The notes: generated by a model from the sequence alone, not told the origin. Positions 45,857 through 63,000 are shown, counted from the stretch's first letter. The stretch is DNA of 64,000 bases from Parcubacteria bacterium GBS-2 (GCA_001443025.1 LEKP01000002.1:28429-92428); one strand, 5' to 3'. Translations and numbers: made by a program.

Positions 45857-47485
45857 TTATAAATTCTTTGATCTTTTCAAGCATGCTCTGATAAATTCTC
45901 TAAACAGAGGATGAGGTCTTAAAGGTCTTGATTTAAATTCTGGGTGGAATTGAGTAGCAACAAAAAAGGGGTGATCTTTTAATTCAATAATTTCAACTAA
46001 ATCCCTTTCTGGATTGATCCCTGCCATTACCATTCCTCTTTTCTCTAAAATTCCTCTAAATTCATTATTCAATTCGTACCTGTGTCTGTGTCTTTCAAAA
46101 ACAATTTCTTGTTTATATGCCAAATAACTTTTAGTTCCTTTTTTAATTTGACATTTGTAATCTCCAAGCCTCATTGTGCCTCCGTATTTTTTTTCTTTCA
46201 AAAGAACTTTTTGCTCTGGCATCACATCAATGACTGGATATTTGGTCTTTTGATTAAATTCAGTAGAATTTGCTCCTCTTAAGCCACAAACGTTTCTTGC
46301 AAATTCAATAATCGCAAGTTGCATTCCAAGACAAAGACCCAAATAAGGAATTTTATTCTTTCTACAAAACTCAATTGCTCTTATTTTTCCTTCTACTCCC
46401 CTACTCCCAAACCCTCCTGGAACAATAATTCCAGCAAAATTTTCTAATTCTCTAACATTTCTTGGATGTTTCTCATACTCTTCTGCATCTAACCATTGAA
46501 TTTCTGGTTTTCTTTTGAAATACCAGCAGGCATGTTTGATTGCTTCAATTACTGAAATGTAAGAATCTATCAAAATAAATTTTCCAATTTTGAAATATTT
46601 TCCACAGACGCCAATTTTTAATTCTTTTTTTGAACTTTTAATTCTCTTTATTAGAGTCTCCCATTCTTTCAAATCAGTTTTTCTAGGTTTCATTCCGAGT
46701 TCTTTCAAAATTTTATTTCCCAAACTTTCTCTTTCAAAATTGAGAGGAATCTCATAAAGAAACTCAATATCCGGAGCTGAAATTACATTCTCTGGTTTAA
46801 TATTGCAAAAAAGAGAAATTTTTCTTTTTCTTGGTTCGTCTAAGAGAGTTTTTGATCTTGCTAAAATAAAATTTGGTTGGATTCCTGCCTCGTTCAATAA
46901 TCTTGCAGCAGTCTGAGTTGGTTTTGTTTTCATTTCGCCTAACATTTCAGGAATCGGCAAATAAGATACCAAAATAAAAATAACCCTCTTTGGGTTTTCC
47001 AATTTCATTTGTCTTGCTGCTTCTAAAAATAAAAGGTTTTGATACTCACCGACGGTTCCTCCAATTTCAACTAAAACAAAATCTGCTTTTTTACCCAACT
47101 CCTTAATTCTCGAAATTATTTCATTGGTTACGTGAGGAATAATTTCAACACACTTTCCTCCAAACTCAAAATTTCTTTCTTTATTCAGCACACTCCAATA
47201 CACTTGGCCTGAGGTCAAATAGTTTTTTCTTTCTAACTCTTGATCTAAAAACCTTTCATAAATTCCAATATCTTGATCTGTTTCTATTCCATCTCTTGTT
47301 ACAAAGACTTCACCATGTTCTAAAGGATTCATCGTTCCTGCGTCAATGTTCAAATAAGGATCAATTTTCATTGGTTCTACCGAAAATCCTTTAGATTTTA
47401 AAATCAGACCGATCGAGGCGGTTGCAGTTCCCTTTCCGATTCCAGACATCACTCCTCCGCAAACGAAAATGTACCTTGCAGCCAT
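45857..47485 (-). CDS. pyrG: CTP synthase
   Basis: YIFVCGGVMSGIGKG start, synthetase domain, C-terminal GATase with GLCLGMQ. Confidence 0.93.
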   Translation of the reverse strand: MAARYIFVCGGVMSGIGKGTATASIGLILKSKGFSVEPMKIDPYLNIDAGTMNPLEHGEVFVTRDGIETDQDIGIYERFLDQELERKNYLTSGQVYWSVLNKERNFEFGGKCVEIIPHVTNEIISRIKELGKKADFVLVEIGGTVGEYQNLLFLEAARQMKLENPKRVIFILVSYLPIPEMLGEMKTKPTQTAARLLNEAGIQPNFILARSKTLLDEPRKRKISLFCNIKPENVISAPDIEFLYEIPLNFERESLGNKILKELGMKPRKTDLKEWETLIKRIKSSKKELKIGVCGKYFKIGKFILIDSYISVIEAIKHACWYFKRKPEIQWLDAEEYEKHPRNVRELENFAGIIVPGGFGSRGVEGKIRAIEFCRKNKIPYLGLCLGMQLAIIEFARNVCGLRGANSTEFNQKTKYPVIDVMPEQKVLLKEKKYGGTMRLGDYKCQIKKGTKSYLAYKQEIVFERHRHRYELNNEFRGILEKRGMVMAGINPERDLVEIIELKDHPFFVATQFHPEFKSRPLRPHPLFREFIRACLKRSKNL

Positions 47486-49146: not shown

Positions 49147-50166
49147 TTACGTCTCTTTTTTTCTAACCTGAAGTTTTTTTCTAATTAAGAACGCAGTTAC
49201 AATTACGCTAACTATGATTAAAATTAAAACAATTGAAATTTGAATGATTTTCTTGGGGTGTAATTCTTTCTTGGGTCGAACTGTTTCTTTTTCTTTTATT
49301 TTTTCTGGATAGAAAGTAGCAATTGTTTCGTTTCCTGCTCTATCCACTGCTTTGACTTTTATTTCTTCATCCAAATTCTGATTTTCTAACAAATAAGGAC
49401 TTTTTGCTATTTTCCATTCTCTTTCTCCTTCTTTTACCATGTAATAATCAACTCCGGTTTCTTTATCAGTGGTATAAAAAACTATAAAATATTTTCCATC
49501 AAAAATGGCAGGATCTCTCTGAATTTGAATTTCAAAAGGTTCTGGGGGGGTAGTATCATTTAACAATTTTTCTCGCCACTCATTTAACCCTTTGCCAGAG
49601 GTGGGTAAAATTTTGATTTTTGAATCTTGAAGAGTAAGTCTTGCTAAAGTTCCTCTACCATCATTTAGAAAAACTTGAGAAGTGTTTAAAATTTTAATTT
49701 CTGCAATTTTTTCTTCAACTTCTCCTACTATCATTGAAGGTATAAAAAACCTAATTTCACCAATCACATTTGTCATCCCCGGATCTCCTGGAATTCTTCC
49801 ACAATAACCACCTGGAATTCCTCCAGAAAAAGAAATTTTTCCAGTTTCATTGATTTTTTTAGTATCTAAACTTGATGGTCTTTCAACCCAGATTGTAACG
49901 ATTGAATCTCCAAAATCTGCTCCTTCAAAGATTAAGGTATCATTTGGAAAACTTAAATCAACTGAAATTGTGTTAATACATTCTCCTTCCGGATCAATCC
50001 TGATTTTAATACCAAAATGATCCTTAAGACCGTATTCACCTTCTTTGGGATCTAAATATAAAACAGCACCAAAAATAAATGATGGTAAAACTGAAAACAA
50101 CAAACAAAAAGCCAAAATTTTTAATTTAAGGTGTGGAATTTGGAATTTGGAATTTGGAATTTTCAT
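49147..50166 (-). CDS. surface protein with N-terminal signal and C-terminal TM anchor; 5' heptanucleotide SSR
   Basis: Signal peptide, C-terminal IIQISIVLILIIVSVIVTAFLIRKK anchor; (AATTCCA)x4 in codons 2-10. Confidence 0.5.
   Translation of the reverse strand: MKIPNSKFQIPHLKLKILAFCLLFSVLPSFIFGAVLYLDPKEGEYGLKDHFGIKIRIDPEGECINTISVDLSFPNDTLIFEGADFGDSIVTIWVERPSSLDTKKINETGKISFSGGIPGGYCGRIPGDPGMTNVIGEIRFFIPSMIVGEVEEKIAEIKILNTSQVFLNDGRGTLARLTLQDSKIKILPTSGKGLNEWREKLLNDTTPPEPFEIQIQRDPAIFDGKYFIVFYTTDKETGVDYYMVKEGEREWKIAKSPYLLENQNLDEEIKVKAVDRAGNETIATFYPEKIKEKETVRPKKELHPKKIIQISIVLILIIVSVIVTAFLIRKKLQVRKKET
50134..50161. repeat. heptanucleotide SSR (TGGAATT)x4, minus-strand (AATTCCA)x4
   Basis: Perfect 4-unit tandem repeat directly after the start codon of the 49147-50166 gene. 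Confidence 0.85.
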
Positions 50167-50167
50167 T

Positions 50168-51208
50168 TTATCCTGTCCAATAATACATCATTATACTAAA
50201 ATCGACTAAATTCACTATTCCATCTTGGTTTTGGTCTGCACAAGGATTGTTAGTCCCCCAATAGTAAAGTAAAATTGAAAAGTCGATTAAATTTACTTTC
50301 CCATCTTGGTTTAAATCAGCACCAGGACAAATTCCAACTGGTGGCTTTTTCCCAACATAGAAAGTAACAAATCTGCTAAAACTGCTTACCACCGTTGCTC
50401 CTTCTATTATTGTTTTGAATTGGGATTTGGCTGTGTGCATTGATTCATCTTCTAAAGGAGAAGTATCAAAGAAAAGGTCCCATTCTCCTTTTTCTGTAGA
50501 AGTGGTTTCTTGGATTATTTCAGCTGGCGAGGCAATGTAAACTGGAACTTTAGCTTCTGGAATAGTTTGACCGAATATTTTTAGTATTTCCCCTCTTTTT
50601 ACAACATTTTTATCTACCCCAATAGTGGGTGGTAAATATGCTCCTCTAACAGTCGTCACAGCATTTGGCATTACTTCAAAGGTTAAAGTATATAAAATTG
50701 ATCTCAGTCCAAATTTATCATCTGCCCAAAAACTTAAGGTATTAATCCCTGGAGTAATATCTGTTGTTTGCCAGGAAAAATTTGCTTTTGAATCGGTTCT
50801 TACTCTGGCGATTTCCTTTCCATCTTTTAAAATTCTCACTTCAGTATCGGGATAGGCTTTCCCCAAAACAATTAAGGTAGTGGGTCCCAAAGGTCTCATT
50901 GCTCCTCCAGGATATCCCCCACCCCCTGCCCCCATTCCTCCAGGTTCTACATAACAGTGCTCAATGGAAATTCTAGTGCAATTATCAACACAGAGTAAAT
51001 ATCCTCGATTATATCCGTAAGTTGCGCAAGTTTTGCCCCCGAAATTGTCTCCGTCGCAAACTTCAAAACCATCGATTCTTCCATCACCACAAACTGAAAT
51101 TCCAACTATGGTAGGAACTTGTTTTTGAGCAAAGACTTTTAGAGAAAAAATTAAAAGAAAGGTTAAAATTAGAAAGAAAATTTTCAAAAATTCCTTCCAT
51201 AATTTCAT
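50168..51208 (-). CDS. secreted protein with Cys-rich repeat and C-terminal dockerin-like module
   Basis: CGDGRIDGFEVCDGDNFGGKTC (Myxococcus-type C-G-D-G...E.CD.GN repeat); C-terminal DLNQDGKVNLIDFSILLYYW and DQNQDGIVNLVDFSIMMYYW (two dockerin Ca-binding repeats). Confidence 0.6.
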   Translation of the reverse strand: MKLWKEFLKIFFLILTFLLIFSLKVFAQKQVPTIVGISVCGDGRIDGFEVCDGDNFGGKTCATYGYNRGYLLCVDNCTRISIEHCYVEPGGMGAGGGGYPGGAMRPLGPTTLIVLGKAYPDTEVRILKDGKEIARVRTDSKANFSWQTTDITPGINTLSFWADDKFGLRSILYTLTFEVMPNAVTTVRGAYLPPTIGVDKNVVKRGEILKIFGQTIPEAKVPVYIASPAEIIQETTSTEKGEWDLFFDTSPLEDESMHTAKSQFKTIIEGATVVSSFSRFVTFYVGKKPPVGICPGADLNQDGKVNLIDFSILLYYWGTNNPCADQNQDGIVNLVDFSIMMYYWTG

Positions 51209-60060: not shown

Positions 60061-63000
60061 TTTGAATTTCGTTAGTTAATTCTTCTTCAGTTTTGCCATT
60101 TGAGATTTGAGTTTTGAGTTCTTCTTCCTTTTCTTCAGTTTTGACATCGAAGCTTTGAGTTTTGAGTTCTTCTTCAGTTTTGAGTTTTGAGATTTGAGTT
60201 TTGAGTTCTTCATCGCATTCCCCTTTTTCTTTTTTCAACTCTCCATTTTCAATCCACAAACAATAAATTTCTCCTGTCGCCTTATCTTTGATTTTTATTC
60301 TTGTTGTTTCTATTTCCTCTGACTTTATCCCTTCAACCACAATTTCCTTGGCAAAAATTTTCTCGACTTTAGCTATACCATTTTCAATTAACAAACCTAA
60401 TTTTTCTAAAGCTTTTTTTATTGCCAAAGTAAACTGATCTAAAATTCCTATTTCTAGCGAATTTTCACCAATTTGATCACTAATTTCATTAATACCACTG
60501 CTGGCAAGAGAACCATTTTCGGTCAAAGATCCCAGCGACCAATGAGGATTTATAAACATTAAAATTTTACAATTTCCTGTTTCTAATTCTTCTTGAGTGC
60601 ATTTTTCAGAAGATTCCAAAGCAACACCGATTACTCTTCCAGGTTCGGTTGCTTTCATTGCCACCCCCGGAGTGCTTGAAAGAGTAAGCAAATCACCTGG
60701 TTGAATTTTTCCATTTTCTGTTGAAACCTTAACCGGCACTCTTCCCATAAGAGTAATTGGCCTTGGTCGCTTAGCCTTGGTGAAGATATCCTCACCGATA
60801 GTTCCAGAAGGTGCAGACGATACTACTCCGATAAAATTTGAACCTCTCTTTGCTTTTTCTAAAACTGGAATTTTTGCAGGTCCTAATTGAGAATCGTATT
60901 CCAAAAGTTCGTCACTCAAAGTAACTACATCTCCTGCTTCAACATCTTCTTTTGTTTCGTACCATTCAGCAAAGTCTGCCCCGCCACTGTAAACATAAGA
61001 ATAAACAACAACCACACCTCCAGCCCCATTCCCTCCGTTGGCAGTATCGGCAACGTCTACTATTGCTCCTCCACCTCCACCAGACCCCCAGGCAATTCCA
61101 TTTTTGCCATCGCTTATTTCAGCAAGATTAGCATTACCTCCTTGACCTCCTTCTCCCCAATAGCTTGCTCCACCTTCGCCTCCGACTGCGTTTTCAGCCA
61201 CGCAAGATTTTGGAGCTGAACCATCGCCACCTGCCAAATTAATGTCTCCATTAGTTGACGCTGCCCCTCCTTCTCCTGGTTCGCCAAAACCAGCAGCACA
61301 AGTACCACCAGTTGATGGGGTTCCAATCGCCCCTCTTCCACCATTAGCAGTAACAAAATCCCCAAATGAAGAATTGCCACCATCAGAACCGCTTCCTCCA
61401 GAACCAGTTCCACCAGCTCCACCAGCACCAACAGTAACATTTACACTATCTGGTAAATCTTCTGCTGAAAATATCTTAATAGTTGTCGCACCCGCACCAC
61501 CCCCAGAACCAGCGCTTTCGCATGTATTATCGCTACAGGTTGCAGTGCCACCTCCACCCCCTCCTCCTGTCACAATCACTTTTACGAATTTAGCGCCAGC
61601 AGGTTTAAACCAGGTACCGTTTGATGTGAAAACATCAACTCTCACGTTATTTACCGCAGTAGTAATACAATCTTTCCAAGCACCATTCTCATAGCATCTA
61701 AATTTATTTAAGGTAGAGTCGTAATAAATCACTCCGTTTGCTCCGGTAGGTTCCGAACTAGGAATTAATCTCATTGGTCCTGCAACATCCAATTTATAAT
61801 CAGGTGCCGTCGTCCCGATGCCGATGTTGCCATTTGCTCCCAAAACAAGTTGGTTGAGATTGTTGGCAGTGAACAAAGTGGTAGTGGCAGTTCCTTGAAT
61901 AGTGTTTGAGCCAATGATAATTGTTCCACCAATTGTCGTTGTTACTGCATAAATGTTCGCCCATCTTAAATTAATGTCTCCTAAATTGTAGAGATTATCA
62001 ACTTCAGGCAAAATAGTTCTGGCAGTAGTTGTCCCCACAATTTGTAAAGTGGTAGCAGGTGTTGCTGTTCCAATTCCTACATTGCCTCCTTGGGAAGCCA
62101 AAATAACAGATCCTGTAATGGTAGTGGTGGCATTTTGATAAGGAGAAATTAAAAGTTGGCCAGATTGAGTAGTAATTAAAGGAACTGACAATTGAGTGGA
62201 AATGGTAGTTGTTGCCAAAGAAGTTAATCCTTGAATGGTTAAATTTCCACTAGCTAAAATGTTTCCGTCCACTGTTAATTTTTCAGGAGGAGTGGAAGTA
62301 CCAATCCCTACGTTCCAGGTAAGATTGTTAGGATAAAGATAAGAGCCATCTAAAGTCCAATAATTTACAGCCGAACCCCAAGAACTAATACAATTTTCTC
62401 CAATGCAAAATCCAGTCTCTGACCTCACATAATTCGTTGCCCTCATGTTTCCTACAATATCTAATTGATAAGCAGGCGTTGTCGTCCCGATGCCCACATT
62501 GCCAGAAGAATCGATTGTGATTCCAGTTGAAGTTGAAATGTCAGAACTAGGGATGATTTTGAGTTTCCCAGTTGAAATGTCGACTCCTAAAGTAAAGTTT
62601 GTTGTGGGAGTGGTTCCAGTTCTAAATTGAATTTGAGGAGAATAAGTTGTTGAAGTAGCAGAAGTTATTGTCAAAATTGGTGAACTATCTGTTTTGTAAA
62701 GTTCCAAAAGAGAAACTGGTGCTATCGTTCCAATGCCAACTTTGCCCATAAAAGACGAAGTGGCAGAAACGTAAAAGTCGCCATCGACAGTAAGTTTGAA
62801 ATTAAGAGTGCTAGTACCAATTCCTACTCTGTTGATTGTGGGATCAATATAAAGTAAATTATCGTTAACCACAAGAGAACCAAAAATCGTGGTAGTTGAA
62901 AGGGTGGATGTGGCAGAAACTGTCAATTTTGTAAAATAAGCCTCATTAGGAGTGGTAGCACCAATTATTCCCGGGGATGCCCAATCGTAACCTAATAATT

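Follow-up and report, generated by a model that had tools for sequence, protein, structure and literature searches.

Phase variation by repeat slippage is, to our knowledge, known almost solely from cultured pathogens and commensals. Patescibacteria (the candidate phyla radiation, CPR) are generally regarded as living attached to other cells, and their surface biology is poorly characterised. Among the described heptanucleotide systems, NeuO, the polysialic-acid O-acetyltransferase of Escherichia coli K1 encoded on prophage CUS-3, carries AAGACTC units (the poly-psi motif) 2 nt past its start codon and is made at full length in one of three unit-number classes; slipped-strand mispairing changes the number of units, three of which encode a 7-residue peptide repeat (PMC3046976). 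Isolates carry 2-93 copies and switch at high frequency, and the repeat peptide stays on the enzyme and tunes its activity (PMC3046976). Heptanucleotide loci of Haemophilus influenzae hold 1-38 copies that differ between nearly all strains, and an AACAACC tract of a TonB-dependent receptor lies in or next to the ORF, with frameshifted alleles (PMC2651432). The usual cut-off for simple sequence repeats (SSRs) is at least five units for longer units, or at least seven G (PMC6321876). Heptamers are a favoured slippage unit in many bacteria (PMC4692102), and heptamer repeats of intergenic DNA include TAACTGA in Beggiatoaceae, Cyanobacteria and Bacteroidetes and GGGAATC in Xanthomonas (PMC4679880, PMC4692102).

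In the 64,000-nucleotide stretch of DNA analysed here, referred to as the window, four AATTCCA units begin 2 nt past the ATG of a gene for a membrane-anchored protein with a cohesin fold. The likeness to NeuO lies in this placement of a heptanucleotide array and in an ON state confined to one class of three. The two differ in that only 3, 4 or 7 units are found here, rather than anything like the 2-93 copies of NeuO, and in that the ON class is n = 1 mod 3. Moreover, the array lies in a signal peptide and is probably cleaved off, whereas the NeuO peptide is retained, and the cohesin-fold protein is unrelated to NeuO, a hexapeptide-repeat acetyltransferase. With hmw1A/hmw2A and the AACAACC locus of H. 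influenzae the array shares seven-base units that would govern a surface protein, although the repeats of the hmw promoters, some 100 bp upstream, work through transcription and, in contrast to the heptanucleotide loci of that species, copy number is nearly fixed here. A 5' repeat whose unit is not a multiple of three, a surface-protein gene and on/off control by frameshift are also features of the contingency loci of Haemophilus, Neisseria and Campylobacter, which are built on tetranucleotide or homopolymer SSRs. Those classical loci usually exceed the length thresholds and are often OFF in isolates, while the array here is short and 0 of 153 loci sampled regardless of their N-terminus were OFF.

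Tandem heptamers near start codons are shared with the TAACTGA and GGGAATC repeats, which typically have 2-6 copies and in Xanthomonas commonly four. Those repeats, however, consist of one fixed heptamer genome-wide, are intergenic and have been given regulator-binding or G-quadruplex roles by proposal, whereas here the unit varies by lineage and by gene and the array of the window lies within an ORF. Finally, a cohesin fold (aa 33-190) and a dockerin protein encoded directly upstream recall the anchoring scaffoldins of cellulosomes, from which the protein differs by only 8-14% identity to cohesins, a single cohesin followed by a C-terminal membrane helix, and a locus with no cellulase context. 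Literature searches returned no report of phase variation within Patescibacteria/CPR, nor of this array there. The array probably adds to the known heptanucleotide frameshift switches, in a phylum for which no such report was found.

The array, its reading frames and its gene

The array, (AATTCCA)x4, occupies 50134-50161 on the minus strand, inside the 5' end of a 339-aa ORF, and the gene strand around it reads TAA A ATG AA (AATTCCA)x4 CACC. Its translation, KIPNSKFQIP, falls within the signal-peptide n-region. TRF run on the window returned 50134-50162 with period 7, 4.1 copies and 100% matches, in agreement with an earlier note on this DNA that had described a four-unit heptanucleotide SSR at 50134-50161. 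That note had placed the array immediately after the start codon; it does lie beside the ATG (50166-50164), with an actual gap of 2 nt, and so is a tandem repeat of a unit that is not a multiple of three, within an ORF and close to its 5' end. In the 64-kb window it is the sole perfect repeat with a unit longer than 4 nt and at least three copies, and AATTCCA is tandem only at 50134-50161. The possibility, raised in the same note, that similar 7-mers simply recur at random in an AT-rich genome did not hold up: the window (32.6% G+C) contains 65 lone AATTCCA/TGGAATT heptamers, none of them tandem outside the array, and the 28-mer (AATTCCA)x4, with up to 3 mismatches tolerated, appeared in 0 of 100 dinucleotide-preserving shuffles. 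The occurrence of the array in the window is far above chance.

Alleles with n = 0-8 units were rebuilt in silico to read the frame from the ATG, and the gene is in frame only at n = 1, 4 and 7. Both other frames reach a TAA no more than 12 nt past the tract, one codon per alternative frame (50126-50128 and 50121-50123, minus strand), which end translation after a change of +1 or -1 unit. The OFF peptides of these in-silico alleles are 5-22 aa long, with MKIPNSKFHTLN followed by the stop predicted at n = 3 and MKIPNSKFQIPNSTP followed by the stop at n = 5. The only in-frame starts past the array are TTG codons (codons 18, 22 and 23), all without a Shine-Dalgarno sequence, and initiation at any of them would delete the charged n-region. 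In these alleles, then, a change by one unit gives a frameshift and an early stop with no rescue start, which bears out the proposal that gain or loss of a single unit frameshifts the gene.

The ATG (50164-50166, minus strand) and the register of ATG, AA and heptads, with the array starting 2 nt downstream, are kept in all orthologs examined. A Shine-Dalgarno-like GGACAGGA (50171-50178, minus strand) sits within the 3' end of the upstream gene and is kept in aligned relatives, with one A/G change in the most distant ones. The TAA stop of this upstream, dockerin-encoding gene (50168-50170, minus strand) ends 1 nt ahead of the ATG, an arrangement that, as read from the DNA, is a tight coupling of the two genes. 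An ultra-conserved block of 40 nt, GATTTTAGTATAATGATGTATTATTGGACAGGATAAAATG (50164-50203, minus strand), covers the last dockerin codons, a TATAAT at 50190-50195, the Shine-Dalgarno sequence and the ATG. In an alignment of 10 relatives it is identical save one A/G change in 10/10, synonymous sites included, down to 67% protein identity. An internal promoter at TATAAT 50190-50195 was considered and rejected, as a consensus scan made no call and there was no -35 match; neither a structured RNA (z = +0.67, not structured) nor a known RNA family (no Rfam match) was found at the start region.

The ORF (49147-50166, minus strand) is real, the 339-aa protein being found identical on 6 contigs from independent samples. 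Its product starts with a signal peptide (aa 1-33), continues with a cohesin-fold domain (aa 33-190; 49597-50070) and another beta domain (aa 214-285), and has a membrane helix at its C-terminus (aa 304-336; 49159-49257). The N-terminal signal-peptide-like segment consists of MKIPNSKFQIPHLKLK followed by ILAFCLLFSVLPSFIFG. In the AlphaFold model (pLDDT 80), residues 1-11 are disordered and are followed by the signal-peptide helix, the two beta domains (aa 33-190 and 214-285) and the C-terminal helix (aa 304-336). The signal peptide and C-terminal anchor that had been assigned to this protein from the sequence alone thus agree with the N-terminal segment and with the modelled helix. A Pfam search of the protein gave no match, hence no acyltransferase match. 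In Foldseek, the first domain matched cohesin modules from solved dockerin complexes (probability 1.0, target TM 0.6-0.73) at a sequence identity to known cohesins of 8-14%; a sequence-profile search of solved structures found no relative, so that the cohesin was identified by fold comparison only. The protein has 1528 homologs, and those with a source name belong to Patescibacteria (Parcubacteria, Nealsonbacteria and others). Many orthologs (L015, L019, L021-L025 and others) show a tblastn match that spans 1300-1500 nt for about 285 residues, which implies an insertion of about 500 nt inside those genes.

The upstream partner gene (50168-51208, minus strand) encodes 346 aa with a C-terminal type I dockerin at aa 298-341 (50186-50317; Pfam PF00404, Dockerin_1, E 5e-7). 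The order of dockerin gene and then cohesin-fold gene is the same in all related contigs, including L179, L183, L184 and L185. By its domains the locus therefore holds a cohesin-dockerin pair, a cohesin fold (Foldseek probability 1.0) next to a dockerin (Pfam E 5e-7), and this conserved pair suggests a surface complex of the cohesin-dockerin type in Patescibacteria. Besides the dockerin protein, the genes upstream on this strand encode two proteins (318 and 585 aa) to which Pfam assigns no domain, a MacB-type ABC pair, an FN3 protein, a weakly CBM_3-like protein (E 8e-4, sub-threshold by the Pfam cut-off) and a glycine-rich protein of 1152 aa. On the downstream side are an S41 protease (Pfam) and the genes of ribosomal protein L9 and CTP synthase, the latter two recognised by Pfam domains of their counterparts in related contigs. 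With surface-type genes on one side and the protease, L9 and CTP synthase on the other, the gene does sit at the edge of a surface-protein locus, as had been supposed.

Some neighbouring genes are called shorter in other contigs. The dockerin gene is called at 339 aa in JGI GBS contigs L003, L005, L006 and L008, against 346 aa in the window (50168-51208), and CTP synthase at 530 aa in L003 and L172, the two contigs reaching that gene, against 542 aa in the window (45857-47485). Judged from the sequences, these shorter calls are differences between strains or alternative starts at the 5' ends. ACTCAAA-type heptads also occur at 60080-60211 of the window, nested in 39/48-nt repeats that encode C-terminal sequence of the glycine-rich protein of 1152 aa (EELKTQISKLKTEEELKTQ...); the two genes there are called at 1137 and 436 aa in L002, against 1152 and 446 aa. 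The second period-7 array that this region would provide (60154-60207) was set aside, being nested in the 39/48-nt coding repeats at another protein's C-terminus, where the comparison locus ends, and so not comparable.

Heptamer arrays and unit numbers among relatives

Every ortholog examined at the DNA level has ATG-AA followed by heptads in one shared register. Four AATTCCA units are found in the window, L182 and L179-181, while L183 has AATCCCA/AATTCCA in an ABAB pattern, L012 AACTCAA x2 and AAGTCAA x2 (AABB), L014 an AAATCAA-type x4 array, and L013 and L178 a degenerate x4 array. The nearest orthologs thus share the array of the window and remoter ones have analogous periodic N-termini. 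Most orthologs have four units, L184 and L185 have seven, and no class other than n = 1 mod 3 occurs in intact genes. At position 6 of the unit, one clade has C and another A, uniformly across its four units in either case; such concerted changes, like the ABAB and AABB patterns, imply that units were gained and lost repeatedly. The array is nevertheless maintained as a perfect one, to judge from its sequence in the sister species L179: it is identical at 30/30 nt, whereas identity falls to 0.67 over the remainder of the signal peptide and to 0.62 in the mature region at third positions (P about 5e-6 to 2e-3 for array conservation).

Perfect period-7 arrays are concentrated at the starts of these genes. 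Among 153 loci (885 kb), 20 lay within -120 to +150 nt of the ortholog start, compared with 15 in the other 843 kb, which corresponds to densities of 0.485 and 0.018 per kb, or an enrichment of about 27-fold. No other period from 4 to 12, periods 6 and 9 included, was enriched at the ortholog start in the 153 loci. The ortholog arrays, built of unrelated units, are placed right past the ATG, within the 5' leader or within the hydrophobic core of the signal peptide. Period 7 is also the commonest short tandem period in about 970 kb of Patescibacteria DNA, with 40 arrays against 2-14 for other periods. Perfect arrays of about 3-4 heptamers occur in frame within housekeeping-type ORFs (L038:6870-6898, TyrS-like; L105:162-188, Tgt-like; L165:6197-6216, MurD-like), which means that arrays can become fixed without a switching role. 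They do so although out-of-frame intermediates should be lethal in such genes, perhaps by single steps of +21 nt. Period-7 arrays are found in intergenic DNA as well, and in L096, L129, L047 and L156 the heptamers lie in the leader, where a frameshift is impossible.

Several further heptamer arrays were seen at loci of this type. The 5' leader of the ortholog in L129 (2940-2979) carries (ATACTGA)x4.7, akin to the TAACTGA repeats (PMC4679880). Arrays also stand at the starts of other secreted proteins of the same locus type (L030:1586-1603, L031:458-475, L037:3903-3920, L149:3926-3954), among them a paralog and, downstream, a protein that bears the motif SLYLSPSTG, and are thus not limited to one gene. 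A small gene for a 'four-helix-bundle' protein, of the kind found in 23S rRNA intervening sequences, lies between the dockerin gene and the ortholog in L043:2564-3021, L017:216-627, L034:2578-3882 and L157:1150-1240 and is flanked by mutually reverse-complementary heptamer arrays; in L157 the facing GTAGAAG and TTTCTAC arrays give a long hairpin upstream of a gene.

One close relative carries a natural out-of-frame allele. In L186 (ENA ERZ650669), a single contig at 3.35x coverage, the gene begins ATGAA(AATTCCA)x3 and has 90-98% nucleotide identity to the gene of the window; compared with four-unit strains, it has no indel other than a single 7-nt gap within the array. Translation from the ATG gives MKIPNSKFQTLT and then a stop, out of frame with the remaining 337 codons, which are intact without further decay, as are the neighbouring genes on the contig. 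One added unit would restore the normal signal peptide. Gene callers resort to TTG only in this three-unit allele. Relative to 49147-50166 of the window, L186 is 90% identical in the first half and 97.9% in the second, with a C-terminus identical as protein, a contrast that suggests intragenic recombination between strains.

A 5' SSR frameshift allele of a second kind comes from a related species, in a k141 Illumina assembly. In L177, A7 replaces A8 in a poly-A tract (GGTAAAAAAA(A)TCTTG; L177:150-165 vs L178:1535-1550) about 40 nt past the ATG and frameshifts the cohesin-anchor ortholog. Both OFF alleles came from a targeted search of truncated gene calls among cluster members. A screen of 163 loci returned no out-of-frame 5' ends beyond L186 and L177, and among the 153 loci sampled regardless of their N-terminus 0/153 were out of frame.

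Within the species of the window, all conspecific contigs that span the array have four units, in at least 7 samples (JGI GBS sets, two ENA assemblies and Logan SRA assemblies); the contig names point to samples of 77 C hot-spring sediment. Sister-species contigs have four units in 5/5. Across all relatives, unit numbers are only 3, 4 and 7, with variation between strains made up of the three units of L186 (OFF) and the seven of L184 and L185, against four throughout the species of the window and five sister contigs. The earlier note had held that exactly four units in all strains would speak against a switch, and had proposed to compare repeat number among strains. The former does not apply to the family, given the three-unit allele and the seven units of remoter orthologs; the latter comparison did reveal variation in L186, L184 and L185, while the species of the window itself always has four. 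Exact look-ups among about 15 billion proteins gave no gene call for another repeat state of this species (n = 1 and 7, and three OFF forms starting at TTG), nor for six sister loci in the OFF form or the L186 allele in the ON form. The close strains compared here were reached by way of cluster members and look-ups of contigs; among the matches listed, scans of metagenomes and genomes gave mostly distant relatives.

Two apparent variants were discarded or left ambiguous on closer analysis. In L008 the gene is in three pieces and resembles a pseudogene, but the four single-base homopolymer insertions, with no substitutions, mark this as sequencing error; even this error-prone contig has four units. 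In SRR7539411, two contigs overlap at the tract by exactly k-1 = 30 nt, that is, by the tract itself, and the assembly graph branches there. This break is not counted as a sign of a change in unit number, as strict de Bruijn logic puts the branch at the second base past the tract and a five-unit allele would break one k-mer earlier; the branch, the only population-level hint of switching, remains ambiguous, and the sequences suggest a variant at that second base rather than a unit change.

A probable low-frequency frameshift switch and its alternatives

The uniqueness of the array in the window, the frame logic, the natural OFF allele, the shared register, the concerted unit changes, the maintenance of the array, the 27-fold enrichment, the L177 allele and the precedent of NeuO together favour a switch. 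On balance, the array is probably a frameshift switch that, like that of NeuO in E. coli, works by slipped-strand mispairing, here at low frequency and in the signal-peptide n-region of a membrane-anchored cohesin gene. With four units (or one, or seven) the ATG would be in frame and the cohesin anchor made, and this anchor could hold the dockerin-bearing product of the upstream gene on the cell surface, where its cohesin would presumably bind the dockerin. If one 7-nt unit were gained or lost in replication, the ATG would fall out of frame with a stop 12-15 codons in, and no anchor would be made until another slip restored the frame. With four units only, the switching rate would probably be low, and the ON state dominates natural populations. 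Slippage would have to be frequent and reversible enough to matter, and switching may bring a benefit. Several observations count against a fast switch, namely four units in every spanning conspecific contig and in 5/5 sister contigs, the lack of gene calls for alternative states and of an ON/OFF pair on one background, and 0/153 loci OFF; L186, in turn, could be a plain loss-of-function allele. At 4.1 units, the tract is also below the length at which switching is empirically seen (at least five units for units of at least 4 nt, the cut-off of PMC6321876). The earlier proposal of a phase-variable contingency locus is therefore sustained in its frameshift logic and by the three-unit L186, but weakened by the constancy of four units throughout its own species and by a tract below the cut-off of five. 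The likening of the source to host-associated bacteria presumes a lifestyle on the grounds of lineage only.

The main rival is that the array is a tolerated by-product of slippage at a weakly constrained n-region that needs only some lysines, with no switching at all and a three-unit allele that reflects ordinary inactivation or assembly error. This explanation, which we hold to be somewhat unlikely, would account for the general prevalence of period 7 (40 arrays vs 2-14 in about 970 kb), for in-frame arrays in housekeeping genes and arrays in intergenic DNA, for the decay of the array in some lineages (L013, L178) and for the invariant copy number in the species of the window; an excess of heptamers is moreover known in many bacteria and has been ascribed to polymerase slippage (PMC4692102). 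It is harder to reconcile with a perfect array that is far better conserved between species than the adjoining signal peptide, and with the body of the L186 ORF, which shows no further decay. A frame-breaking period should also be selected against in an ORF, yet period 7 is 27-fold enriched here while periods 6 and 9 are not.

Alternatively, the array could be a cis element of the translation-initiation region that acts independently of its length, either as a G-less unstructured stretch that promotes initiation or as a periodic site for an RNA- or DNA-binding factor. The array abuts the 40-nt block that is invariant in relatives down to synonymous sites, its length is fixed at four in most lineages, degenerate arrays retain a CAAA-N3 periodicity, some orthologs carry their arrays in the leader (L096, L129, L047, L156), and the start region is unstructured (z = +0.67, as above); TAACTGA heptamers just upstream of start codons have likewise been proposed as translational regulator sites in Beggiatoaceae (PMC4679880). 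A common trans-factor motif is, however, at odds with units that vary between lineages and even between genes of one locus, and the absence of an Rfam match also argues against the element. In L012 and L178 the array diverges while the block next to it does not, which marks the two as separate features; lysine codons in the n-region account for the conserved A-rich positions, and an unstructured leader has no need of perfect tandem identity. Such an element is thus quite unlikely. That the true start lies past the array, leaving the heptads in an untranslated leader where frame is irrelevant, appears highly improbable: the in-frame TTG codons 18, 22 and 23 would permit it, but they are without Shine-Dalgarno sequences and would remove the charged n-region, the ATG and GGACAGGA are kept in all relatives, and callers use TTG only in the three-unit allele. 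The restriction of heptads to four or seven in intact genes, too, makes sense only if the array is translated.

What a switch would mean for Patescibacteria

If the low-frequency frameshift switch is true, it marks a surface complex that cells can afford to lose and regain. Perhaps, and here we are more doubtful, cohesin-anchor genes and the secreted-protein genes beside them share, in their 5' heptanucleotide arrays, a contingency system that evolution has maintained phylum-wide, with short, self-renewing signal-peptide arrays in each lineage that keep to the in-frame series 4, 7. Ultra-small and probably host-attached cells might in this way stochastically shed and regain a cohesin-dockerin complex, for example in escape from phage or in a change of partner. 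If this tentative extension is true, no phase-variation system would have been described in the candidate phyla radiation before it. The pattern of the family, with one register, varied units and four or seven copies, is an unusually clean comparative signature of frame-constrained slippage, and, should the switch be true, heterogeneity of repeat length in existing metagenomic reads would offer a testable handle on population-level bet-hedging in uncultured bacteria.
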